NCBI GenBank assembly: GCA_963769025.1
Contig: CAVYKI010000010.1
Span: forward strand, 416,001-480,000
Origin: an uncultured Verrucomicrobiae bacterium
GTDB lineage: Bacteria > Verrucomicrobiota > Verrucomicrobiia > Chthoniobacterales > Chthoniobacteraceae
Direction of reading: 5' to 3'
Length of the DNA: 64,000 bases
The translations under genes were made by a program, and so were the position numbers. The notes under the pieces were generated by a model, which saw nothing but the letters and a program-made list of their open reading frames with translations, did no database searches and had not been told where the DNA came from. Below, piece after piece: positions 5,399 through 18,584 of this stretch (the first letter of the stretch is position 1; every line of letters begins with the position of its first letter).

Positions 5399-5533
5399 CT
5401 ACTTGAGCGGATCCTTTTTGCTGCAACCGCAGCCGCCCTTGCCGGCCTTTTTCGAGCGCGCGCGCAGCACGAGATACACCACCGCGCCGAGCACCGCCGC
5501 GACGACGAGGATCTGCTGGACGGTCTCGTTCAC
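5399..5533 (-). CDS. FeoB-associated Cys-rich small membrane protein
   Basis: GTG start overlaps the feoB stop (GTGA); one TM helix followed by GKGGCGCSKK. Confidence 0.8.
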   Translation of the reverse strand: MNETVQQILVVAAVLGAVVYLVLRARSKKAGKGGCGCSKKDPLK

Positions 5534-7614
5534 TGGAAGCCGAGCAGCCGCCCGCCCTGGTAAACGACAAACGCGCCGACCCACGCGAGCACGGTCATGT
5601 AAGCGATTTGGAACAGCGGCCAGCGCCACGAGTTCGTCTCGCGCCGCACGATGGCGACGGTGCTGATGCACTGCATCGCGAGGACGTAGAAGACCATGAT
5701 CGAAAGGCACACGAGCGGCGTGAAGACGGGCGTCCCGTCGGCACGGCGCTCGGCGCGCATCTGGCTGCGGAGATCCTCATTCTCCTCATCGGCGTCCTCG
5801 ATGTTGTAAATCTGGCCCATGGTGCTCACGAAAACTTCGCGCGCGGCGAACGAGGCGACAAGGCCGATGCCGATTTTCCAATCGTAGCCCAGCGGCGCGA
5901 TGACCGGCTCGATCGCGTGCCCCATCCGCCCGCCGATGCTGTGCGCGAGGGACTCGGACGGCGTGGGATCCGGCGTCGTGGGCTTCGGATAGCTGAGCAG
6001 CGCCCAGAGGATGACGCTGAGGGCGAGGATGACCGTGCCCGCCCGGCGGAGGAACAGCACCGCACGCTCCCACATCCGCTGCACGATGCCGCGCAACACG
6101 GGCGCGCGGTAAGGCGGCAGTTCGAGCAGCAGCATGGGCGTCTCGCTGCGCAGGATCGTCTTTTTGAAAAGGCCCGCCATGACGAACGCGGCGAGGATGC
6201 CGATCAGATACATGCACAGCATCACCCCCGCCTTGCTCCACACTCCCTGCGCGGGCATGAGCAGCGAAATCATGATCGCATACACCGGGAGCCGCGCGGA
6301 GCAGCTCATCAGCGGCGCGACGAGGATGGTGACGAAGCGGTCGTTGCGGTTCTCGATCGTGCGCGTCGCCATGATGCCTGGAATCGCGCACGCGAACGAA
6401 CTCAGCAGCGGGACAAACGATTTCCCGTGCAGGCCCACGCGCGACATCATGCGGTCCATGATGAACGCGGCGCGCGCCATGTAGCCGCTGTCCTCCAGCA
6501 GCCCGAGGAAGAAAAAGAGGATCAGGATTTGCGGGAGAAATATGACGACATTGCCCACGCCGCCGATCACGCCGTCCACGACAAGGCTCTGCAGATCGCC
6601 GGGCGGAAGGTGCGCGCCTGTCCATTTTGCGAGCGCCTCCATCCCGGCGCTGATCCACTCCATCGGCGCCTGCGCGACGACGAAGATGCACACGAACATC
6701 AGCACCATCATCCCGATGAACGCGATCCAGCCCCACAGCTTGTGCGTGAGGATCTGGTCCATGTGGTCGCTGAACGTCAGCCCGTGCGAATCCTCCCCGC
6801 GACGGTGCACGACGGAAGCGCACACTTCCGACACCCACGCGTAGCGCGCATCCACCGGCGCGGCGATCGGGTCCAGCCCGCTGAGCCGCAGCCGCTCGCG
6901 CGCGGCATGGATCTCCGCGAGCAGCGCGGCATTCCCTTTCACCTCCGCGCCAAGGCGTTCGTCTTCGAGCGAAAGGAGCAGCATCGCCTCCGGGCGCGTG
7001 CTTCCCGCGTGGCAATCGATGATGCGCGACAGCGCGGCGACCTCGCGTTCGAGCACGATGGGGAGCTGCGCCTTGCGGTCGGAAACGTGGAGCGTGGGAC
7101 GGGAGAGCGCCTGCTTGAGCTCGATGAGCCCCTGCCCGCGGCTCGCGACCATCGGGATCACCGGCACGCCCAGGCTGTCGCGCAACGCGAGCAGATCGAT
7201 CGACAGCCCGCGCTTTTCCGCGACGTCCACCATGTTCAGCGCGACGATGACGGGGATGTCCAGTTCGAGAAATTGCGCGACGAGGTAGAGATGCCGGTCG
7301 AGGTTCGACGCATCGAGCACCGCGATGATCGCATCCGGCCGCGGCGTCCCGGGCACGCGGCCCAGCAGCAAATCGCGCGACACCGCCTCGTCCGGCGAAC
7401 GCACCTGCAGGCTGTAGCTGCCCGGCAGATCGAGCAGTTCCATCGCCTCGCCGTGGCTGCCAAAAAATCGCCCCGTCTTTTTTTCCACCGTCACGCCGGG
7501 ATAGTTCCCCACTTTCTGACGCAGGCCCGTGAGGGCGTTGAAAATCGTGCTCTTCCCCGTGTTCGGATTTCCGGCGATGGCGATGCGTCGGAAGAGTTTT
7601 GGAAGGTCACCCAT
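5530..7614 (-). CDS. feoB: Ferrous iron transporter B
   Basis: GNPNTGKS, NYPGVTVE, DLPGSY, NMVD G-motifs; gate motifs LEDSGYMARAAF, MSCSARLPVY. Confidence 0.98.
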   Translation of the reverse strand: MGDLPKLFRRIAIAGNPNTGKSTIFNALTGLRQKVGNYPGVTVEKKTGRFFGSHGEAMELLDLPGSYSLQVRSPDEAVSRDLLLGRVPGTPRPDAIIAVLDASNLDRHLYLVAQFLELDIPVIVALNMVDVAEKRGLSIDLLALRDSLGVPVIPMVASRGQGLIELKQALSRPTLHVSDRKAQLPIVLEREVAALSRIIDCHAGSTRPEAMLLLSLEDERLGAEVKGNAALLAEIHAARERLRLSGLDPIAAPVDARYAWVSEVCASVVHRRGEDSHGLTFSDHMDQILTHKLWGWIAFIGMMVLMFVCIFVVAQAPMEWISAGMEALAKWTGAHLPPGDLQSLVVDGVIGGVGNVVIFLPQILILFFFLGLLEDSGYMARAAFIMDRMMSRVGLHGKSFVPLLSSFACAIPGIMATRTIENRNDRFVTILVAPLMSCSARLPVYAIMISLLMPAQGVWSKAGVMLCMYLIGILAAFVMAGLFKKTILRSETPMLLLELPPYRAPVLRGIVQRMWERAVLFLRRAGTVILALSVILWALLSYPKPTTPDPTPSESLAHSIGGRMGHAIEPVIAPLGYDWKIGIGLVASFAAREVFVSTMGQIYNIEDADEENEDLRSQMRAERRADGTPVFTPLVCLSIMVFYVLAMQCISTVAIVRRETNSWRWPLFQIAYMTVLAWVGAFVVYQGGRLLGFQ

Positions 7615-7617
7615 GGC

Positions 7618-7884
7618 TCAGATTCGTTGCACGCGGATGCCCGCGGCTTCCGCCTTGCGCAGCGAAATGTGCGCGCCGCGGACCTTGAATTCCATCGGGT
7701 CGCCCAGCGGCGCAAAACGCACGACCTCGACCACCGTCCCGACCGTGAAGCCCATTTCCATCACCCGGCCGCGCATCGATCCGGGCACTTCCACGGCGAG
7801 CACCTTCGCGCGCTGTCCCGGTTGGAGCGCACTGAGAGGTTCCGCCTCGCTCCGGGGCTCCGCTGTCTCCGCGTTGTCACTCAT
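7618..7884 (-). CDS. feoA: Ferrous iron transport protein A
   Basis: RVMEMGFTVG..APLGDPMEFKVRG..LRKAEA. Confidence 0.95.
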   Translation of the reverse strand: MSDNAETAEPRSEAEPLSALQPGQRAKVLAVEVPGSMRGRVMEMGFTVGTVVEVVRFAPLGDPMEFKVRGAHISLRKAEAAGIRVQRI

Positions 7885-7890
7885 GGCGGC

Positions 7891-8133
7891 TCAGACTGCG
7901 AACCGCTCCACTTCCACGTGGTCGCAAAGTTCACGGCCCAGCGCCAGGCGCGTCCCCATCAGCAGGCAGATCACCGCAGCGCCGTCCGCGATTTTCCGCA
8001 CCACCACGTGGTCGCGGAAGCCCAGTTCACGCAGCCGAACGCAGTGCGGACAGTCCGGGCAGATGTGCCGGACACGCAACTGCTCGCCGCATTTTGCGGT
8101 CGCGAGCGTCAGTTTCGGAGTGGGGAAAAGCAT
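7891..8133 (-). CDS. feoA: Second FeoA-family protein with CPDCPHC motif
   Basis: RLRELGF..GTRLALGRE FeoA pattern; first gene of the feo operon. Confidence 0.8.
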   Translation of the reverse strand: MLFPTPKLTLATAKCGEQLRVRHICPDCPHCVRLRELGFRDHVVVRKIADGAAVICLLMGTRLALGRELCDHVEVERFAV

Positions 8134-8156
8134 CGGTGTATTTCTTACTACAGTGC

Positions 8157-8199
8157 CTGAGATTGGGTCGCAAGAACAATTGCGATTGAGTCGCAATTG
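8157..8199. promoter_or_regulatory. Tandem Fur-like iron-responsive operator upstream of feoA
   Basis: Perfect inverted repeat CAATTGCGA-TTGAG-TCGCAATTG (8177-8199) plus a degenerate copy TGAGATTGGGTCGCAA (8158-8173). Confidence 0.65.
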
Positions 8200-8302
8200 G
8201 CCTCGCGGACAGGTGAAATACCCGCCCGGAGGCACCGGATTAGGCGGTTTGTCCGCAATTTTTCCGATGTCGCACGCGCGGGAGCCGGACCACTGCCCGC
8301 AG

Positions 8303-9507
8303 TCAGCGGGAAGTACGGACTAGGCGCGCTTTGGGTGCCTGTGGGCGTCGGGAGGCAGTGAGCCACGGATGCGCGAGCGCGCCGGATGCGGACGCGCGTG
8401 CGGAAGCTTCCACCGCCAGCAGCGACGCGAGAAAATCCGCAGCGACGTCGGCTTCCGTTTTCGGGAGCTTGGAGAGGCGGCGGACAAACGGCTGCAGCGA
8501 CGTGCGACGGATCGCGGGGCGGAAACGGAGCGCGCCGTCTTGCTCGAAATAGGCGGAGCGGTAGAGGGCCGCGTCGATCATCGCGGGCGGCAGCGGCCCG
8601 CGCAGCCGGGTGATTTCGAGGAGGTGTTCGTAGTTCAGGGTGAGGTCGAGCAGATCGTCCGCGCCGCGGACCTCGCGCCATTTCTCCTCGTGGATGTTCT
8701 TCTCCCCTTCGATCTCGGACGAACCGGGCAGGCTGTTCGCATAACCCCAGAGCGTGGCGTAGGTGCCGTCGAGCGCTGTGTCGTTCAACTGCCGAGCCTG
8801 CCACACGGTGCCGTAGCGTCCGCTGCCGAGGACCTTTTCGAGCGCGTACTTTCCGGCGATGATCGTGCCAGGCTTGAATTGCTCGGCCTTTTCAACGGTC
8901 TCGTCCGCCTTCACGCTTTCGGCGAGCGGGAGTTCGATGGCTTCCTTGCCCGTGCTGAACTCGCGGTACTTTTTCGCCGCGGCTTTGCGCGGGCTGAAGA
9001 GGCGGCGGCCGGTGAGCATTTCAAAGACGGTGCAGCCGAGGCTCCACAGGTCCACGGCTGTGCTCAGCGGTGCGCCGATGATCAGTTCCGGCGCCATGTA
9101 TTCGCGCGTGCCGAAGGTGGAGCCCTGCTTGAAGCGGTTGTCGGCGCTGCCGAGGTCGGCGAGGCGCGCGGTGCCGGTGCGGGCGTCGTAGAGGATATTG
9201 TCGGGCTTGATGTCCGTGTGCGCGTAGCCGCAGCGGTGCAGGCGCTCGGTGGCGCGCAGGAGTTCGCGGGTCACGCGCTTCACGCGGGCGAGCGGCAGCG
9301 GCTCCGCGATCGAGCGCGTCGTCGAGGCTGCGCCCGTGCTTTTCGTAGGCCATGCACACGTGGCCGTCGTGGAGGAATGCCTCGTGCAGTGCCGATGATG
9401 TCCGGGCACTCGCCGAGTTCGCGGCGGAGGAGCTTGTGCAGCGACACCTCGAAGACAGCCCCCTTGCTGTAGCGGCGGCGCTGGATTTTGAGCGCGATTT
9501 TCTCCAC
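8303..9507 (-). CDS. SRPK-like (CMGC) Ser/Thr protein kinase with rearranged subdomain order; two apparent frameshifts (~9390, ~9301)
   Basis: Rebuilt: IALK, alphaC Glu (AVFE), HVCMAYE, PLPLARVK, HTDIKPDN, ADLG, TREYMAPE, DLWSLGC..FEMLTG, HPWL. GSGRYG loop is internal. Confidence 0.85.
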
Positions 9508-9513
9508 GGCGAA

Positions 9514-10857
9514 TCAGTTGTCCGTGTTGTTCACGAATGCGCGGCGGATTTCGTAGAGCACGCGGCCGATGAGCCGGATGTCCTCGGTGATGATGCTCGC
9601 CTCGCCGGTCATGTCCTGTTTGAATTGCAGCCGCTTTTTGAAGCTCGTGACGAGCGGATACGGGATGTCCACGAGCACGAGGTTCGCCCCGTCGCGCGCG
9701 ACCATGGAGACGGACTGCACGCGGCCGGTCACGAGGCCGAATTCACGGTACGGGAAGTCGGCAAAGCGGATGCGGACCTTCTGGCCTGGCTTGATTTTTC
9801 CCGCGCCGCCCTGGTTCACCGACATGCGGCCGATGAGGCGCGAGGTCTCGGGCACGATGAGGAACACCTGGCGCCCGGCGGTCACGAACTGCTGGTCGCT
9901 CCAAAAATCGTAGAAGGCGACCACGCCGTCCGCGGGCGCGCGCAGGACGTAGTCCGCCTCCCACACGTCGATTTCGCCGCGGAGCTTGTTGAGGCTCACG
10001 CGCAGCTTTTCGCGCGCGAGCGTGAGCGCCTCGTGGCGGTCGTGCTCGATGTTGCGGAGTTCGCGCTCCATGCGCGACGCCTCGATCTCGGCATCGGTGA
10101 GATTCTTTTGCATGAGCCCGTCGCCGCGCATCTGGGAAAGCACGGCCATTTCCTGCTCCTGCAATTGCGCGGTGCTGATCGAGTCGCGGCGGTGCAGCAC
10201 TTTCAGCCGGTCGTATTTTTCCTGCGCGAGTTCGAGTTCGCGCCGGGTCATCTGCTGTTGCGCGCGCATGGCGGTGATCTGGCTCTGCTTGCCGGTGAGT
10301 TGCTGGCGCAGGAGGTCGCCGGCCTTCTGCGCGTAAGTGTCGGCGAACACGGTGCGGAACTGGTTGTACGCCCCGAGGAATTCCGCGTAGCCGTCCTGGA
10401 GGCGTCCGAGGCCCTCCTCGGGTTTGAATTCGATGTCGAATGTCGCAGCGTCGCCCGCGACGGCCGGTGCGAGACGCGCGAGCTTTTCCTTCAGCGCGAG
10501 AGCGACGGCTGCCTGCGAGGGGCTTTGGATCACCGCGAGGATGTCGCCCTTTTTCACCTTCTGCTTCTCGCTGGCCTGCAGGCTTTCGAGGTGTCCGCTT
10601 TGGCGCGCGACGACTTCCACGACGGGCTGCGTGCCGGTCACGCTGAGGCGCGCGGTGATCGTGTCGGGATACTTGATGATGACCGAAAGGATGAGCAGCA
10701 GCGTGAGGACCGCGGCGAGCATCGTGGTGCCGGATTGCAGCAGCCAGTGCGGCGGGCGGCCCATGAATTCGCGCACATCCGCGTTCATGAGCGCGAGCGG
10801 CTGCGGCGGCGGGATCACCGTGAGCGTGCGCTGGGGTTGAGGTTCGTCAGCCGGCAT
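9514..10857 (-). CDS. HlyD-family membrane fusion protein
   Basis: N-terminal TM, VKKGDIL lipoyl half-motif, long coiled coil, LRAPADG, FPYREFG. Confidence 0.92.
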   Translation of the reverse strand: MPADEPQPQRTLTVIPPPQPLALMNADVREFMGRPPHWLLQSGTTMLAAVLTLLLILSVIIKYPDTITARLSVTGTQPVVEVVARQSGHLESLQASEKQKVKKGDILAVIQSPSQAAVALALKEKLARLAPAVAGDAATFDIEFKPEEGLGRLQDGYAEFLGAYNQFRTVFADTYAQKAGDLLRQQLTGKQSQITAMRAQQQMTRRELELAQEKYDRLKVLHRRDSISTAQLQEQEMAVLSQMRGDGLMQKNLTDAEIEASRMERELRNIEHDRHEALTLAREKLRVSLNKLRGEIDVWEADYVLRAPADGVVAFYDFWSDQQFVTAGRQVFLIVPETSRLIGRMSVNQGGAGKIKPGQKVRIRFADFPYREFGLVTGRVQSVSMVARDGANLVLVDIPYPLVTSFKKRLQFKQDMTGEASIITEDIRLIGRVLYEIRRAFVNNTDN

Positions 10858-13079
10858 GGGTCGACGAAACCTCCAGTTCGAGTTGGTTGCGCACGAGCCG
10901 GTAGTACGCGCCGGCCTTCGAGACGAGATCGCCGTGCTGCCCGGTCTCCACGATGCGGCCCTGATCGATGACGACGATCTGGTCCGCGTCGCGCACGGTG
11001 CTGAGGCGGTGCGCGATGACGACGACCGTGCGGCCCTGCGCAAATTCACGGAGCGCCGCGATCACCGCGCTCTCGTTCTTCGTGTCGAGAGCGCTCGTGG
11101 CTTCGTCGAGGAAAAGGAAATCGGGATTGCGGTAGATCGCGCGCGCGAGCAGCAGGCGCTGGCGTTCGCCGCCGGAGAGTCCCTGCCCTTCCGCGCCGAC
11201 GACCGTCTCCGCGCCATTCGGCTGGTTGCGCACAAATTCCTCCATGCTCGCGAGCCGGATCGCCGCGCCCATGCGCATCGGATCGATCGTCTGGCTGCCC
11301 GGCACGACGTTCCTCGCAAACGTCCCGGAAAAAATGAATCCGTCCTGCATCACCACGCCGCAGCGCGCGCGCCACGCGTGTCCGTCGAGCGCACCGAGCG
11401 GCACATTGTCCACGTATATTTCGCCGCCGGTGGGGCGGTACAGGCCGAGCAGAAGTTTCAGCAGCGTCGTCTTGCCGCTGCCGCTCGCGCCGACGATCGC
11501 CGTCACTTTTCCCTGCGGGATGACGAGGTTGATGTCCTTCAGCACATCCGCGCGTCCGGCGCCGGGATAGCGGAAGCTGAGGCCGGAGATCGGTGAGCTT
11601 TCGCGACTCGGGAAAGTCGGACGTCGCGTGCGTTTCGTCCTCGTCCTCGTCCTTGTGGTCGTAGATTTCCTGCATCCGCTCGAGGCTCAGCCGCGCGTCC
11701 TGCGCGCTGTAGATGAATTCGATGATGCGGCCGATCGGCGAGTTGAGCTGTCCGACGATGTACTGCGTCGCGATCATCATGCCGAAGGTCATCTCGCCCT
11801 GCAGGACCGCGCGCGCGGCGAGGAATGAGATGAGGATGTTGCGGATGTTGGAAAGGACGGTGACTCCGAGGCGCTGCGTCTGCTTGAGCGCGAGGCTCTT
11901 TGCTTCGAGCTGGTAGTTGCGCATCGCGATGTGCTCCCAGTCCCACCGCTTGTCGCGCTGCAGGCCCTGGATTTTGATCTCGGGCATGCCGGCGACGATT
12001 TCCATCAGCGTGTCGCGCTCCTTCGCCTCGAGGACGAAGCGCTTGAAGTCGAGCATCCGGCGTTGCTTGAGAAAAATGAGGAGCCAGCCGACGGCGAGTG
12101 CCGAGAGGATCACGAAGGTGCGAGGATTTGCCAGCTGTAGAGTGCGAGCACCATCGCGAAGACGACGAACGTGAGCAGCGAGAAGACCACGTCGAGCGAG
12201 GACGACATCAGGAAGTCCTTCACGCGCCGGTGATCGCCGATGCGCTGCATGATGTCGCCGGCGGTGCGGCTGTCGAAGAACGGGCAGCGGGAGCCGCAGC
12301 AGCTTGCTCAGAAAATCCGCGATCATCGCGATGCTCACGCGCGAGCCGATGTGCAGGAGCAGCCAGCTCCGGATCATGTCCGCGGCGGTCTGGCTGAGCG
12401 CGAGCATCAGTTGCGCGGCGAGCAGGAGGTAGATGAAATGCAGATCGAGATTCCCGATGCCGTAGTCCACGACCGCCTGCGAGAGGAAGGGCAGGATCAG
12501 CTCCAACCCGAGACCGACGAACATCCCGACTCCGACTTGCAGGAGGAGTTTTTTGTAAGGCCGGAGGTAGTTGAAAAAGAACGCAAGCCCCTTGCGGCCG
12601 CGCTCCGCATCCTTGCGGCCCGAGGCGCTCTGCTCATGGAACGCGGGGGTGGTTTCCAGCAGCAGGTAGATTCCCGGCGCGTCGGCGGAAATGGGGGTTC
12701 CCGGCGGCGAACTCGCGCGGATGAATTCCTCCGGCGAATAGTCCACAAGGCCGTGCGCCGGGTCCGCGACGCGCACCTTGTTCCGCGTGAACTCATACAC
12801 CACGACGAAGTGATCCGCCTGCCAGTGTGCGATGCACGGCAGCGGCGCCTCGTCGCGCAGACGCATGTAGCTGAGGCGCACGGCGAGCGAGCGCAGGCCG
12901 ACTTTCTCCGCCGCCTCGGAAATGCCGAGCAGCGACACGCCGCCCTTGCCGATGTGGCAGAGTTCGCGCAGCCATCCCTGCGAAAATTCACGGCCGTGAT
13001 GCGTGCAGATCATCCGCAGCGCCGCGGGGCCGCAGTCCATGGCGTCGAGCTGCGGGTGGAACGGGAAACGTTTCTTCAT
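10847..13079 (-). CDS. Peptidase C39-containing ABC transporter (PCAT); frameshifts ~12282, ~12120, ~11590
   Basis: QLDAMDCGPA (catalytic Cys), HFVVVY..DPA (His/Asp), TM domain, GASGSGKT, LSGGERQR, LDEATSALD. Confidence 0.93.
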
Positions 13080-13094
13080 GCCCGTGCGCGCGGC

Positions 13095-14700
13095 CTAAAA
13101 GGAAAGATTGTGGCGCTGGGCGATGGTGCCATCGAGCTGGCCGAGCGTGGACCATGCGCCGAGGATGGCGAGGCGGGCTTCGAGCACGCGCATCTCGGAG
13201 GTGCGGAGATCCTCCTCGGCCTCCCGAAGCAGGCGCACGGGCACCGAGCCCTTCGCGATGCTGGAGGAGCTGCTCCTGCCACTTTTCCATGCTCGCCTTT
13301 TGCGAATGCCGCGCGGCGGCGAGCTGCTGCCGGCCGAACGCGATGGCACGGCAAAGTTCGCTGATGCGCTGACGCAGCCGCTGCTCGGCCTGCTCGCGGA
13401 GGACCTCGCTGCGCGCGAGTTCGGCCCGCGCGGTTTCGAGTTGCGCGCGTTCGGCGCGGAAAGTCCACGGCAGCGAAATCCGGGCGAGGGCGACACCTTC
13501 CCAGCCCCTGCCGCCGCTGCCGTCGGAGCCCGTCTTGTTCGACGCGCCGGAAAACTCCACCTCCAGCTTGGGCAGCATGTTGTTGCGCGCGCGACGGAGT
13601 TCCACTTCGCGGCGCTCGATTTCGTTGATGAGCAGCACGGCGATCGGCGCGTTTTCGAGCGCGCGCTGGATCGAGACGGCCGGGTTCGGATCGGCGGCAG
13701 GCATCGAGGCTTCGCGGATCGGTTCAAAGACCAGCCTCGATGCTGACACTCCCTGCGGTGCGCCGATCGCAAACCACAGTTCGTCCACGCGGTCGGACAC
13801 CAATTTGGTCGCGGACAGCCAGCGCTCCTGCGCGGTGGAGACGAGGACTTCCGCCTCCAGCACGTCGAGCTTCGATGCGGCACCCGCGGCCTGCCGTGCC
13901 TTTGCATCCTCGAGCACCGACTGCGCGCGGCGCAGGCTCGCGAGGAAATTTTTCTCGCTCAGCGCCGCGACCGCCGCGGCGAAATAGCCGGATTCGGCCG
14001 CACGGAGCATTTCGAGGATCTCCGCATTGCGCGTGGCCTCGGCCTGGTCGCGCAGCAGTTCGGCGATGCGGATGCCTGCGCGGTTCACACGCGGGTCGAG
14101 GCCGCGCAGCAGTTGCTGGCGCACCGTCAGCGTGTATTCCGAAGTCGTGCTGTTGACGTAGTCGTTGCGGAAATCGCCGGTGCTCGTCGCCACCTGCCCG
14201 GCTTGAAAGTCCACCTCGGTTCCCGTCACGAACCTTTTCGACACGCCGCCGCTCCCTGCGGCCTGCGACCATGTCCGGCCCTCGGGCGTGTCCGTCCGGA
14301 CCGTGCCGGTGAAGTTCGGATCGAATTGCGCCTTCGCAGTCTCGATGCCCGCTTTCGCGGTGCGTGCGGCGAAAGATGCGTCGCGGATCCGGAAGTTGCG
14401 CTGGATCCCGTAAAGCACGCAGTCGTCGAGCGTGAGCCGTCCGCTGGAGGCGATGTGCACCTCGGCAGGCGCGGCGCTCGGCAGACTGACCCGCGCGGGA
14501 GCGGGCGTCTGTTTCGCAATCGGGCGCGGCGCGGCGGTCCCGATGGCGCGTCCGTCCTCAGCTCCGGGCGCGATGGAAAATGCGCCGAAAAGGATCACCG
14601 CGATCGTCGCGGCGAGCGGCACCCCGGAGCCGCGGCGGCGCGGGCGGGGCTGCACACGTGGCGTGCTGGGCGTGCTCGGGCGGAAGTCAGAAGGTGTCAT
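13095..14700 (-). CDS. TolC-family outer-membrane efflux protein; frameshift ~13256
   Basis: LTLDDCVLYGIQRN, QQLLRG, GAASKLDVLEAE, NMLPKL helical-barrel pattern; upstream of the PCAT and HlyD genes. Confidence 0.85.
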
Positions 14701-14761
14701 CCAGTCGAAAGGCGATCGTGCAGTGCGGAATGCAGCATTGGGAGAGCAGGATACCAGCCTA

Positions 14762-14803
14762 GAAAAAGAAAAAGCAGGAAGGCACAAAGTCCTTCCTGCT
14801 TTT
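14762..14803 (-). terminator. Intrinsic terminator between precursor gene and tolC
   Basis: 13-bp perfect stem AAAAGCAGGAAGG / CCTTCCTGCTTTT, 8-nt loop, U-rich tail on the minus strand. Confidence 0.8.
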
Positions 14804-14876
14804 GAATCTTCCGACCCGGCGACGAAGTGGGACCCGCGGGCGGACCTTCAATCGGCACCGGGTTCCGTGCGGATGA

Positions 14877-15092
14877 CTACCAACCGCAGGGCTTCGGAGC
14901 GCAGCCGCGGCGGGACTTGCTGCCGGACTTCTTGCTCTTGGAGCCGCACTTCACCTTGGATTTCTTGCTCTTGCTCTTCTTGCACTTCACGGTCTTCACT
15001 TTCGTGACCTTGCAGCCGCCGCCGCCGGTGACAACTGCGGGTGCGTTGATTGCGTCGGACGCGAACTGGTCGAGGATGCTGATCTTCTTCAT
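14877..15092 (-). CDS. Putative double-glycine-leader precursor peptide with Lys/Ser/Cys-rich core
   Basis: MKKISILDQFASDAINAPAVVTGG|GGCKVTKVKTVKCKKSKSKKSKVKCGSKSKKSGSKSRRGCAPKPCGW; first gene of a PCAT operon; consistent AAG/AGC/TCC codon use; A/C-rich leader. Confidence 0.85.
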   Translation of the reverse strand: MKKISILDQFASDAINAPAVVTGGGGCKVTKVKTVKCKKSKSKKSKVKCGSKSKKSGSKSRRGCAPKPCGW

Positions 15093-15570
15093 GATTGTGT
15101 GTGTTTGTGTTTTGTTTGTTTAACTGACTGGCAGATTTCTCTGCACGCGCCTCGTTTCTTATAATTTACAGACACCGTCAACAAAAATAAGAAATAAAAT
15201 GCACGGACCGCATGCCGTAGATGACGAATTGTTTTTGACCGGGTGCATTTACCAAACGTCAAACCTGCGGACGCGCTACTCGGCCATGGCCGGCGCAAGA
15301 CGTTGCGAAACAGGGGCCGGGGGCGACGGCGCTTAGCACACCACCACTTTCCGGCCCGCGACAATTCCGGCGCAGGTGCCTGCGGGTCTGGATATTGGGT
15401 GACTTACCGGAGCCCCCAAGGATGCGATGCAAGCCTCCAGTGCGTTCGCAGAGAGAGCCCGGCTGCATGCGTGTCGCTTCCGCCATGCCCCGTCGTTCGT
15501 TCACGCGCCCTGAGGAAAATGCTACTGATGAGTAAATCTGGTATGTTTACTGCTACTTTCCATAATCAAG

Positions 15571-16215
15571 ATGCCTATCCACGAAACAAACCGCAACCCT
15601 TCCTCCGGGCCACTCCGCTGGTCAGAGCGAGCGACAGTCCCAGTCTGCCCGGACGCGGAATCCAAACCGCTCCGCCGTTCCCGCCGGGCATTCACCCTCG
15701 TTGAAACCTTGGTTGCGGCGACGGTGGTCATCATCGCGCTCGGCGCGATCTTTATGGTGAGCAGCCGATGCATGGGGATCGTCCGCTCCTCGCAGAGCGT
15801 GGGCGTCGCCTCGGCCATTTTGCAGGAGCGCATGCAGCAGTTGCAGGCCACGGATTGGGAAACGCTGACTGACAGCGATTCCTACACGGATCAGGTGTGG
15901 ACCGATCCGGAGGATGGGACGACGGAAAATGTCGCCGGCCTCCTCAAGAGCGCGACCCTTTCGGCGGGCGCGTTCCAATTGCAAAACGCCGTGGAAACGA
16001 TCCGCGTGTCGGCATACCGGCCAGTCGCGGTCGCCGCCGCGGAACCGGCAGCGATCGTTGCGAGCCGGACGGCCACCACGCCGACTCTCACATCCGCGAC
16101 GACAAATCTCGGGGATGAGAAAATGGTCCGCATCGATGTCCGGCTCACGTGGACCGAAGGCAAGGCAGGCCTCCAGCGCTCACTCGGATTATCGGCCATC
16201 GTGGCCCGCAGATAG
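15571..16215 (+). CDS. Prepilin-type (PilV-like) minor pilin
   Basis: RRA|FTLVETLVAA type III signal followed by a hydrophobic helix. Confidence 0.8.
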   Translation: MPIHETNRNPSSGPLRWSERATVPVCPDAESKPLRRSRRAFTLVETLVAATVVIIALGAIFMVSSRCMGIVRSSQSVGVASAILQERMQQLQATDWETLTDSDSYTDQVWTDPEDGTTENVAGLLKSATLSAGAFQLQNAVETIRVSAYRPVAVAAAEPAAIVASRTATTPTLTSATTNLGDEKMVRIDVRLTWTEGKAGLQRSLGLSAIVARR

Positions 16216-16224
16216 GACGCTCCT

Positions 16225-16842
16225 ATGAAAACACCACTCCCACGCCTCCGCCGCAAAGCCGGTTTCACGCTCGTCGAGATGCTGATCGGCGCCACAGCGG
16301 CCTCGATCTTCCTCGGAGGACTGATGACCGGGAGCATCGCGCTCCAACGCTCGCTTTCCGCGAACGATCAGCTCGCCCGCGCCCAATCGGATATCCTCCG
16401 CGTGTCCGATTACATGACGCGGGACATCCGCAACGCGACAACCATCAACACGGCGGCGACGGGCTCAGTGCTCCTCACGGTGACGACCGGGGACTATTAC
16501 AACCGGAACGGCACTCCGAACAACCCCGCGGACGACGTTCCCAATTCCCCCGTCCTCGGGCGCACCACGGCGAGCTACGGAGCCAGCCCCGTGAGCATCC
16601 GCTACCTGAAGAGCGGGACGCGCATCGCCCGCGAAGTCACCCGGATCGACGCCGGTGTCTCCACCACGACCACGACTTGGATCGCCGACAATGTGGACAC
16701 TCTCAGCGTGGCTGCGGATGCGAATGGCAACATCACATTCACGTCGGCGACTGCCATGAACTACCGCGTCCGGAAGGCAGGATTCGAAGTCCCCTCGCTC
16801 TCCTTCGTGATGTCTTCAAAACCCCGAAACTCAACACCGTAA
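16225..16842 (+). CDS. Prepilin-type (PilW/PulJ-like) minor pilin
   Basis: KAG|FTLVEMLIG, DYMTRDIRNA. Confidence 0.85.
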   Translation: MKTPLPRLRRKAGFTLVEMLIGATAASIFLGGLMTGSIALQRSLSANDQLARAQSDILRVSDYMTRDIRNATTINTAATGSVLLTVTTGDYYNRNGTPNNPADDVPNSPVLGRTTASYGASPVSIRYLKSGTRIAREVTRIDAGVSTTTTTWIADNVDTLSVAADANGNITFTSATAMNYRVRKAGFEVPSLSFVMSSKPRNSTP

Positions 16843-16847
16843 ATACC

Positions 16848-18584
16848 ATGCTCCTGTTCCCGAAAAAATCCAAGTCCACGGAAGGCGCCGTGCTCGTCGC
16901 CTCCATCCTCACCGTCGCAGTCCTGGCATCGATTTCCGCCGGCGTCCTGCTCACCGTCGGGGCCAAGCACCACGACAGCTACCACGCGGCAGGCTGGCGG
17001 GAAGCACTCACCGCCGCCGAATCCGGAGTCGAGCGGACCATGGCCGAGCTGCGCACCGCCATCGACGATCCAGCCAACGCATGGACCGGCTGGGTGGTCG
17101 TCGATTCGGCAGGGAAAACGGCGGCGTTACAGCAGATCAATCGCACTGGCCGCTGGCCGGCCGGCTACACCCTGCGCATGAACGCCACGCTGCCTCCGCA
17201 GGCCGGTGAGAGCCGGCAGACCCAGTACGCTGTGCTGGTCGATGTCCCCTCCACGCTGGCCACGACATCGAGGCGGTGGAACCAGTCGTATCGCATCCGC
17301 TCCACCGGCGTCACGGCGGTGCCCGGGGCGGCGATCGCCGCGGTGGACAAGCGCGACACACAGTTGCGGCGCCTGAGCCTCTTCATGGACCGGACGGTGG
17401 GCTTTCCCGGCAGCGGCTCGCAGCTCGCGAGGCCGCAGGCGACCAGGACCATCGAGGTCATCGCCAAGCCCGAGAGCGTTTACAAATACGGGGTGACTGC
17501 GGAGATCAACTTCAAGCTGAACAAGAAGACCATCATCGACGGCTATAATTCCAACTACCCGGAGAGTTCGACCAACGGCAAATACGATCCGACGAAACGG
17601 ACGGCAAACGGCGGCACGATCCTGGCCAACCGCTGGAAGAAGAAGCCGAAGCCGGATCAGGCGGCTGAAAAATTCGATGTCGGCAAGGCCACGATCTATG
17701 GCGACCTGATGGTCAAGGGCAGCATGAAGAACGTGAAGAATTTCGAGAACGTGCAGGGCAACAAGCTCACCAACGTGAGCATCGACACGCCGACGAACGT
17801 CGCGCCGGTGTGGACCTCGGTGACGGCAAACATCGCCACGTTGGACGGCAAAATCCCCGATGCACTGAAGGCGACCTACAAGACCGCAGAAAAGAATGCC
17901 AAGGCGGGCGGCCCGGTCGCCCAATTCGAGGCCAAGAGTGCCACGGCGGCGGCCGAACTGGCTGCCAAGGGGATGGAACTGCCCGGCGGCGCCGACCCTT
18001 CCAACCCGACGCGCTACAAAGTCGAGAAGATCGGCGTGGACAAGAAGACGGAATCGCTCGTCCTGAGCAATCCGCCCGGAGTGTCCGAAAGCTGGATTGA
18101 AATCTGGGTGACGGAGGAGATGAAGATCGAAAAGGGCGGCACGATGTTTGTCTCCAATGGCGTCCACGCGACGATTTACCTCGAAGGCAAGAAGGTCGAA
18201 ATCAAGGACACCAAGGCGGACAAGGGGGGCTTCATCATCGAAAGCGGCTTCGCCGGAGACCTGCAACTCATCGGCATCGAGGCAAAGGAAGACACCAAGA
18301 AGGAAACCGACGACGAGTATTCGCCGAAAAAGCGCAGCGGCAAGATCTCGATCTCCGATGCCGACTTCACCGGCGTGATCAATGCCCCGGACTGGGACGT
18401 GGACTTCAAGCCGAAGGACTGGGACAAGGATGACACCATCTACGGTGCCCAACTCTATGGCTCGGTCCTGGGACGCAAGGTCAAGATCGGCAACGGTGCG
18501 GACTACCACTACGACGCGGCGGTCACGGAGATCGGCAGCGTCACGATGTATTCGACCGCCGGCTGGAACGAGCTCGAGCGGTAG
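16848..18584 (+). CDS. PilX-like minor pilin with large Lys-rich C-terminal beta domain
   Basis: EGAVLVASIL..ALTAAESGVE PilX N-terminus; YRIRSTG; C-terminal GVINAP..YGSVLG..HYD. Confidence 0.75.
   Translation: MLLFPKKSKSTEGAVLVASILTVAVLASISAGVLLTVGAKHHDSYHAAGWREALTAAESGVERTMAELRTAIDDPANAWTGWVVVDSAGKTAALQQINRTGRWPAGYTLRMNATLPPQAGESRQTQYAVLVDVPSTLATTSRRWNQSYRIRSTGVTAVPGAAIAAVDKRDTQLRRLSLFMDRTVGFPGSGSQLARPQATRTIEVIAKPESVYKYGVTAEINFKLNKKTIIDGYNSNYPESSTNGKYDPTKRTANGGTILANRWKKKPKPDQAAEKFDVGKATIYGDLMVKGSMKNVKNFENVQGNKLTNVSIDTPTNVAPVWTSVTANIATLDGKIPDALKATYKTAEKNAKAGGPVAQFEAKSATAAAELAAKGMELPGGADPSNPTRYKVEKIGVDKKTESLVLSNPPGVSESWIEIWVTEEMKIEKGGTMFVSNGVHATIYLEGKKVEIKDTKADKGGFIIESGFAGDLQLIGIEAKEDTKKETDDEYSPKKRSGKISISDADFTGVINAPDWDVDFKPKDWDKDDTIYGAQLYGSVLGRKVKIGNGADYHYDAAVTEIGSVTMYSTAGWNELER

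Follow-up and report, generated by a model that had tools for sequence, protein, structure and literature searches.

Phosphorylated members of the RiPPs (peptides made on ribosomes and altered after translation) are already known, among them microcin C, the lasso peptides paeninodin and pseudomycoidin, phospeptin and salivaricin 10, as listed in passages of PMC12639078 that add a kinase domain found in cyanobactin macrocyclases. Here we describe, in a 64,000-nucleotide stretch (hereafter, the window) of the genome of an uncultured Verrucomicrobiae bacterium (contig CAVYKI010000010.1, positions 416,001 to 480,000), a cluster of five minus-strand genes that encode a short precursor peptide, a TolC-family outer-membrane channel, a C39 peptidase fused to an ATP-binding cassette (ABC) exporter (peptidase-containing ABC transporter, PCAT), an HlyD-family periplasmic adaptor and a Ser/Thr kinase that resembles the SR-protein kinases (SRPKs) of eukaryotes. 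The cluster is probably a RiPP-type operon, one that is conserved in Chthoniobacterales-like Verrucomicrobiota, the host being a soil and sediment bacterium. On balance, we lean toward the interpretation that the kinase, guided by the leader of the precursor, multiply phosphorylates the core of the peptide before export.

Nearest in logic among the described systems, as far as the passages of PMC9259500 go, is phospeptin, a linear RiPP of Ca. Eudoremicrobium malaspinii that is di-phosphorylated by a single LanM-dehydratase-like maturase. According to the same passages, Ser/Thr phosphorylation by this one maturase is the only modification and the phosphorylated form is the end product, as would also be the case for the peptide described here, so that a kinase serving as the sole maturase would not be without precedent. 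The phospeptin maturase, however, has the lipid-kinase fold of the LanM dehydratases, with a disabled elimination site, and installs two phosphates, and neither a Lys/Ser repeat core nor a linkage to PCAT, HlyD and TolC appears in those passages; the kinase of the window is not homologous to the LanM dehydration domain but matches Pfam Pkinase (PF00069) and is predicted to adopt an SRPK-like fold. Paeninodin, pseudomycoidin, salivaricin 10 and the kinase-domain cyanobactins share with the putative product of the cluster the stable phosphorylation of a ribosomal peptide but carry one or two phosphates, are modified by other kinase families or by a macrocyclase-embedded domain, and are built on other scaffolds.

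In the class III and class IV lanthipeptide synthetases (LanKC and LanL, respectively), a Hanks-type Ser/Thr kinase domain likewise acts on a leader-bearing precursor, but there it is fused to a lyase and a cyclase, and the phosphate is eliminated; the protein described here is a stand-alone kinase of the SRPK type, comprising about 385 aa and the kinase domain only, with no linked lyase or cyclase. With respect to the type of substrate, a functional parallel may be drawn with CotH, which, according to passages of PMC7821199, poly-phosphorylates CotB and CotG on their Ser/Lys/Arg repeats. As in the system proposed here, CotH is a dedicated, co-clustered kinase that acts on disordered, Ser/Lys/Arg-rich repeats, in that case of extracytoplasmic structural proteins, with at least 30 phosphoserines in CotB; in contrast, CotH has an atypical, Fam20C-like fold, and its substrates are proteins of 24–46 kDa assembled on the spore, not peptides that bear a leader and leave through a PCAT. 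The export genes resemble those of colicin V (CvaAB-TolC) and of the NHLP-type PCAT systems in that a double-glycine (GG) leader, a C39-ABC exporter, an HlyD adaptor (the membrane-fusion protein) and TolC are combined, and all four of these components are found in the cluster. No kinase belongs to those systems, and the class II cargoes of GG-leader exporters are unmodified and hydrophobic or amphipathic, in contrast to the Lys/Ser repeats seen here.

A literature search, with most subscription-journal papers outside its reach, found neither a published SRPK-like kinase linked to a PCAT and Lys/Ser-repeat precursors nor a RiPP family with a stand-alone SRPK-type kinase as its only tailoring enzyme, in agreement with a preliminary description made from the sequence of the window alone; although phosphorylation of RiPPs is known, none was found described with this type of enzyme. 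A review of bacterial pseudokinases (PMC12599244) nowhere mentions SRPK, CMGC, permutation, Verrucomicrobia, HlyD or ABC transporters.

All five co-oriented genes of the preliminary description were recovered as open reading frames (ORFs) with, for all except the precursor, the corresponding Pfam matches (Table 1). The PCAT contains the domains Peptidase_C39 (E = 4.1e-30), ABC_membrane (3.7e-10) and ABC_tran (3e-31), such that a leader-removing protease is part of the cluster, and the peptidase residues that had been called intact, the cysteine of DCGP and the histidine of DHFVVVY, are both readable in the PCAT frames. The kinase starts, as had been stated, 6 bp past the hlyD stop codon, with a GTG at 9507 (hlyD stop at 9514–9516), whereas the start of HlyD at MPADEPQ was placed by alignment of orthologues. 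Relative to L013, a related locus in which the genes are intact, the window HlyD is 57% identical over 471 aa and the window TolC 54–67% identical, with its C-terminus running on in another frame; the intact PCAT orthologue of L013 (743–767 aa) has the NHLP-type peptidase/permease/ATPase as its best NCBIfam match, under the cut-off of that model. Between the precursor and tolC lies a terminator-like hairpin, the one with the longest stem among the 14 terminator-like sites found (7.3 ± 2.9 in shuffles). The gap between the precursor and the next gene is the usual site of an attenuator in peptide operons, and the hairpin is likely to function as one, giving a surplus of precursor transcript. Ahead of the precursor ATG, an A/C-rich tract (15093–15150; for example, AAACAAACAAAACACAAACACACACAATC) contains no obvious Shine-Dalgarno sequence, and comparable A/C-rich tracts precede the orthologous precursors in loci L021, L026 and L028.

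Table 1 Genes and other features of the window cluster, secreted proteins adjoining related clusters, and aligned segments of the kinase
Feature	Position	Strand	Remarks
Precursor peptide, 71 aa	14877–15092	-	ORF; no Pfam or NCBIfam family
Terminator-like hairpin	14770–14803	-	13-bp stem and T-rich tail; between precursor stop and tolC start
TolC-family outer-membrane channel	about 13095–14700	-	Pfam OEP, E = 3.2e-26; one frameshift near 13246
PCAT (C39 peptidase fused to ABC exporter)	10847–13079	-	Pfam; frameshifts near 12281, 12119 and 11591
HlyD-family membrane-fusion (periplasmic adaptor) protein	9514–10857	-	Pfam HlyD_3, E = 3.4e-15; frame intact
SRPK-like Ser/Thr kinase, about 400 aa	8303–9507	-	Pfam Pkinase (PF00069), E = 9.6e-34; frameshifts near 9390 and 9303
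PF01186 secreted protein	L017:11227–15429	+	beside the cluster
PF01186 secreted protein	L018:7666–11604	+	beside the cluster
PF01186 secreted protein	L020:4061–5623	-	beside the cluster
Kinase segment aligned with Sky1p	kinase residues 218–248		Sky1p 19–54 (N-terminal Gly-rich hairpin); 9 bits alone
Kinase segment aligned with Sky1p	kinase residues 50–176		Sky1p 99–239
Kinase segment aligned with Sky1p	kinase residues 293–383		Sky1p 248–338

The cluster keeps its arrangement in relatives. When 40 related genomes were searched for the kinase, full-length orthologues (E of 1e-100 or better) turned up in 4 of the 24 other genomes of the genus, and the loci L013 and L014 hold the same five genes, intact and tightly packed, with a 4-bp overlap of hlyD and the kinase gene in L013. 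A scan of species-representative genomes yielded 17 loci with the kinase family (L017–L033), in 16 of which the kinase is full-length, at 38–100% identity to the L013 kinase. All 17 come from metagenome-assembled genomes, mostly labelled Chthoniobacteraceae, Chthoniobacterales or Verrucomicrobiota, with single loci labelled Planctomycetota, Akkermansia muciniphila or ‘bacterium’; metagenomes contributed another five loci. The HlyD gene is the immediate upstream neighbor of the kinase in 20 of the 21 assessable loci (16 of 17 from genomes; L098, L099 and L100, that is, three of three from metagenomes; and the window), often with a 4-bp overlap or a gap of 13 bp or less. All genome loci except L029 and L031, which are cut by contig ends, encode a PCAT (15 of 17), and in L098 and L100 a PCAT adjoins the kinase; TolC lies within the cluster in the window and in six of the 17 genome loci. 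Thus, the linkage of kinase homologs to a PCAT and a short ORF with a GG leader and a Lys/Ser-rich core, for which the preliminary description had called, held and includes HlyD as well, with Arg/Thr in place of Lys/Ser in some of the cores.

The distribution of the kinase family is patchy: within its GTDB family, it occurs in 11 genomes out of 151 and in 5 genera out of 29, and a sample of 400 further genomes from across the phylum contains no carrier at E 1e-40 (4 candidates per genome scored). Such patchy spread is usual for accessory clusters. In protein databases, 252 proteins at E 1e-5 or better were detected among 8000 scored candidates; the 120 matches listed share 45–98% identity with the L013 kinase, with lengths of about 380–400 aa in almost every case, and clustering at 50% identity leaves about 30 representatives with a match over a single full-length stretch.

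No candidate for a second tailoring enzyme emerged from the flanks of the cluster. In keeping with what had been claimed for the window, none of the 12 flanking ORFs scanned there belongs to a lanthipeptide, YcaO, radical-SAM or ATP-grasp family; in 15 of the related loci, a further 35 flanking ORFs were scanned, which likewise contain none of these families and no lyase or cyclase, and none of the 35 is conserved across the loci. On these grounds, readings of the cluster that invoke lanthipeptide, YcaO, radical-SAM or ATP-grasp enzymes were rejected, and the kinase stands, as had been proposed, as the only candidate tailoring enzyme, no other tailoring gene being conserved beside the cluster in the window or in the relatives.

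Altogether, 18 precursors were collected: that of the window, those of 13 genome loci out of the 17 (with two precursors in L026) and those of three of the five metagenome loci; every locus lacking a precursor is cut at a contig end. The precursors share a leader with the consensus MKKSILDQFAxDAINAPAxVTGG, in which F9, A10, G22 and G23 are invariant and K2, S4, I5, D12, I14, P17 and T21 nearly so, and, as is characteristic of RiPPs, this conserved leader is followed by a variable core. In the window, the leader is MKKISILDQFASDAINAPAVVTGG, no second copy of which was found in the window genome, and the core consists of 47 aa, including 18 Lys and Arg, 10 Ser and Thr, 5 Cys and no acidic residues. 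Pfam and NCBIfam scans of four precursors, including that of the window, matched no family, and assignment to a named family was accordingly rejected.

The cores cannot be aligned in detail but follow a common design, a repeated basic residue beside a hydroxyl residue, as in KSKSKKSK, SRKSRSNKS, SGKSGKS, TRTRTRTR (L098 and L101), RRTHRRTHR...RTRNRTRTR (L024) and KTPKTPKPKS (L100). Each core contains 10–18 Lys and Arg and 0–3 acidic residues. In 13 of the 18, there are 2–5 Cys, typically one near each end (GKC ... C.PPPPKC), whereas the cores of L023, L024, L098, L100 and L101 are Cys-free. Across the set, 159 of the 204 Ser/Thr residues adjoin Lys or Arg compared to about 102 expected from 2000 composition-preserving shuffles per core, counts that are not independent trials given that the precursors are related to one another; taken individually, 10 of the 18 cores show the excess at p<0.05. 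The replacement of Lys by Arg and of Ser by Thr while the alternation is kept suggests that selection acts on phospho-acceptor sites within basic surroundings.

The kinase is closest to SRPKs by both sequence and fold. In a phmmer search against PDB sequences, the best hit was yeast Sky1p (1.6e-32), followed by SRPK1 (about 1e-24), with DYRK2/3 and CLK1-3 ranking below both, and the top Foldseek matches were SRPK1, SRPK2, CLK3 and Sky1p (E about 1e-15, template modeling (TM) score 0.60–0.72, 20–23% identity). The HTDxKPxNIL, DLG and TREYxxPExLLGAP motifs and the C-terminal region of the CMGC insert and helix G align between the bacterial kinase and the SRPKs (Sky1p and SRPK1/2, of the CMGC group), the presumed substrates are in both cases repeats of a basic residue beside Ser/Thr, and the modelled docking surface, near the helix-G region, would similarly bind a peptide segment outside the phosphorylated stretch. 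Throughout an alignment of 19 family members, the catalytic residues are invariant, namely K10 (the beta3 Lys), E23 (the helix-C Glu) and H98-D100-K102-N105 (HxDxKxxN), as are D119-L120-G121 (DLG), P141-E142 (APE) and G227/G229. Because of this invariance, the kinase should be catalytically active.

The label ‘SRPK-like’, given in the preliminary description, is therefore appropriate with regard to the closest likeness and the intact catalytic motifs, but an orthodox SRPK the enzyme is not. All 19 aligned members begin at beta3 (VALKIQRRRY), without a preceding Gly-rich loop, and the GxGxxG hairpin (AGKYxLxRxLGxGRFGTVW) is found instead at residues 218–240, inside an insert of about 110 residues after helix F; in Sky1p, it is N-terminal (19–54). 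The AlphaFold2 model of the L013 orthologue (predicted local distance difference test, pLDDT, 90.0; predicted TM score, pTM, 0.90) has the N-terminal order beta3, helix C, beta4, beta5 and a beta hairpin at 220–239, and the phmmer alignment to Sky1p breaks up into three pieces in permuted order (Table 1). Five more distant members (P0131, P0141, P0145, P0148 and P0153) share this order, such that the canonical succession of subdomains with an N-terminal Gly-rich loop is absent from the aligned and the distant members alike. The definition of SRPKs also includes a large spacer between the catalytic loop and DLG; here, only about 13 residues separate HTDVKPENIL from DLG, the insert being located after helix F. 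Further differences from the SRPKs are the bacterial origin of the family, the low identity (about 20–23%) and the linkage of the gene, in an operon, to an exporter. We therefore do not file the family as SRPK proper; the alignments indicate an SRPK/CMGC-derived kinase whose beta1-beta2 Gly-rich hairpin follows helix F in the sequence instead of standing N-terminally, and in three dimensions the relocated hairpin would be expected to cap the ATP site. We regard this rearranged kinase fold as a notable second finding.

Two minor observations concern the sequence neighborhood of this family. One member of 716 aa, P0121, combines the permuted kinase with about 330 extra N-terminal residues that are themselves kinase-like (LLVKVEK ... 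HRGNVLL ... IDFGRS). In the metagenome scan, the best kinases after those of the family (L102–L176) are 25–39% identical, and several of them (L106, L138, L150 and L166 among others) match up to query residue 379–383.

Structure prediction of the kinase-precursor complex, with an alignment of each partner as the input and with controls, lends support to recognition of the leader. The interface score (ipSAE, interaction prediction score from aligned errors) was 0.68 (0.68, 0.74 and 0.67 in the individual runs) compared to 0.33 for the best control and 0.02 when an unrelated protein replaced the kinase; in a calibration that is to be read as approximate, 116 of 157 solved complexes attained the score mark, as did 2 of 215 mismatched pairs. 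At least 55% of the contacts coincide between runs, and the partner pLDDT is at least 50. In the model, residues 2–23 of the leader and 67–74 of the core contact kinase residues 18–28, 180–198, 249–260, 272–290, 318 and 328, and the leader site includes K181, Y182, E184, F185, W276, D284, D287 and L288, which are invariant in the family and not general to kinases. The model supports, without proving, binding of the leader to the kinase.

Taken together, these results suggest the following scheme. The precursor is made with a GG leader of 23–24 residues and a polycationic core of basic-hydroxyl repeats. In the cytoplasm, the kinase would take the conserved leader on a family-specific surface formed, in the model, by the KKYxEF segment and the W...GADDLLDLA segment, and would then phosphorylate many of the Ser/Thr residues adjoining Lys/Arg, as SRPKs do along RS repeats. 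By analogy with the respective families, the C39 domain of the PCAT would cleave after VTGG, and the PCAT-HlyD-TolC channel would expel the peptide over both membranes. The expected product is a near-zwitterionic peptide that is secreted, carries multiple phosphates and in many cases is framed by Cys residues. The interpretation offered in the preliminary description is thus supported overall, each of its computable parts having passed; phosphorylation of the peptide itself we infer.

If the kinase indeed decorates the core, the cluster would define a new RiPP family, in which a polycationic repeat peptide is characteristically densely phosphorylated on Ser/Thr, the enzyme being a stand-alone, leader-guided kinase with SRPK ancestry, and would add a candidate leader-guided kinase for making polyphosphorylated peptides. 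It would also offer a bacterial setting in which SRPK-style repeat phosphorylation could be studied with a substrate of 50 residues and, for kinase biology, a natural, well-populated family (about 30 clusters at 50% identity) whose Gly-rich loop comes from elsewhere in the chain. A broader scenario, which we consider speculative and rather doubtful, is that a bacterial lineage acquired a eukaryote-type SR-protein kinase, moved the ATP-binding hairpin into a C-lobe insert and turned the docking surface into a RiPP leader site. Working along (K/R)(S/T) repeats, such an enzyme would generate secreted, densely phosphorylated zwitterionic peptides, counterparts of SR-domain, CotB/CotG or silaffin-like polyphospho-polycations, that would serve as extracellular material for matrix, adhesion or mineral nucleation rather than as an antibiotic and, in some lineages, would be cross-linked further by adjacent lysyl oxidases.

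Several observations weigh against leader-guided phosphorylation of the core. In L026, the sole exception among the 17 genome loci, the kinase has no adjacent HlyD, and, because the related loci are kin, the counts of conserved linkage overstate the independence of the cases. In the core of L022, Ser/Thr residues are not enriched beside Lys/Arg (6 of 14, p = 0.72), and seven further cores are individually non-significant. The complex score may in part reflect memory of the solved structures of SRPK1 with a docking peptide, and its calibration holds only roughly because our own alignments were used. Finally, the copy in the window can be translated only by reading across six breaks, which are considered below.

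The findings that link kinase and peptide would fit equally well if phosphorylation were transient and served self-protection or chaperoning. Under this alternative, the kinase would neutralize the polycation in the cytoplasm of the producer, preventing binding to nucleic acids or membranes, dephosphorylation would take place at export or later, and what acts in the end would be an unphosphorylated, bacteriocin-like cationic peptide. Cores so rich in Lys and Arg and nearly devoid of acidic residues are typical of membrane-active and nucleic-acid-active peptides, and the export machinery is of the bacteriocin/microcin type. However, no phosphatase is conserved among the 35 flanking ORFs of the relatives or in the flanks of the window, no immunity-like small membrane protein was seen, and TolC-coupled export would bypass the periplasm, so that we rate this possibility as unlikely.

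Equally unlikely, in our estimation, is that the kinase regulates the exporter or has a signaling role, with the PCAT, HlyD or another protein as the substrate, and that the peptide is an unmodified, class II-type GG-leader peptide. The tightest and most constant neighbor of the kinase is indeed hlyD and not the precursor, and bacterial Hanks-type kinases commonly regulate membrane machines. Nevertheless, the persistence of basic-hydroxyl repeats in otherwise unrelated cores, with the Lys-to-Arg and Ser-to-Thr swaps, is hard to explain without selection on acceptor sites, and in the complex model the leader rests on kinase residues whose invariance is confined to this family, whereas the control in which an unrelated protein took the place of the kinase scored 0.02.

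Lanthipeptide-like chemistry, in which phospho-Ser/Thr would be eliminated to dehydroalanine or dehydrobutyrine and captured by the flanking Cys, either spontaneously or through an unlinked lyase and cyclase, appears less probable still. Most cores do combine several Cys with many Ser, the class III/IV synthetases employ a Hanks-type kinase domain in their first step, and the NCBIfam models of LanL and LanKC match the kinase weakly. These matches, however, amount to 52.7 bits against a cut-off of 650 for LanL and 28.2 against 575 for LanKC, no lyase or cyclase domain is present in any flank scanned, and five of the cores are entirely Cys-free.

The preliminary description noted a frameshift in the kinase only. 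The kinase is indeed broken, at two sites (about 9390 and 9303), but the cluster contains six single-base frameshifts in all, the others being in the PCAT (about 12281, 12119 and 11591) and TolC (about 13246), such that the kinase sequence runs through three frames, that of the PCAT alternates between frames, switching three times, and that of TolC runs through two. Essential genes of the same genome are disrupted in the same manner: the rpoB domain PF00562 lies in four pieces that occupy different frames over a span of 1.6 kb (G000 contig C3:126485–128054), and PF00133 class-I tRNA synthetase domains are likewise split over frames (G000 C3/C9 loci). The assembly comprises 13 contigs and is 83% complete. 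Among the metagenome runs, only small shares (0.11 or less) were found; in four of these runs, contigs of relatives that are 85–99% alike to the window, although not of the same strain, differ from it in length by 1 nt at 9303, 9390, 11591/11593, 12119, 12281/12285 and 13246, that is, at the six junctions that had been mapped independently beforehand. Because rpoB is split as well and the 1-nt differences of the relatives fall at the same six sites, the frameshifts are assembly errors, and we treat the genes of the window as intact in the organism; for fold predictions and searches, intact orthologues were used in place of the broken copy. That the window instead holds a decaying pseudogene array that makes nothing, as six frameshifts within 6.8 kb might suggest, is hardly credible and was rejected, given the like splitting of rpoB and tRNA synthetases, the lack of in-frame stops and large deletions in the cluster, and the correspondence of every break to a single base that the contigs of relatives lack or have in addition at the same position. 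Single-base indels are frequent in the G000 assembly and probably also depress its completeness estimate.

Among the neighbors of the cluster, secreted proteins with a lysyl oxidase domain (PF01186) adjoin it in 3 of the 17 genome loci, in two arrangements (Table 1). In the 7.9-Mb genome of L020, the adjacent gene is the sole PF01186 match; genomes G022 and G006 have two matches each, one of them adjacent, G007 has one that is not adjacent, and G000 and G011 have none. This adjacency may reflect a link of a Lys-rich secreted peptide with a Lys-oxidizing enzyme, or chance. As an obligatory partner of the cluster, lysyl oxidase was rejected, with none detected in the 83% complete window genome and adjacency confined to these three loci. 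Just downstream of the SRPK-like kinase, L020 also encodes a protein of 1899 aa with lamin-tail, laminin-G and CotH-kinase domains (L020:11285–16984, minus strand).

In the window, the downstream side of the kinase is occupied by two tandem ORFs with FeoA domains (7618–8235, minus strand), followed by an intact FeoB of 694 aa (5530–7614, minus strand). Upstream of the precursor, divergent genes (15571–18584, plus strand) encode proteins with prepilin-type N-terminal methylation motifs (PF07963) and a large DUF7305 protein, a module that is probably pseudopilin or type II secretion-like and unrelated to the cluster.

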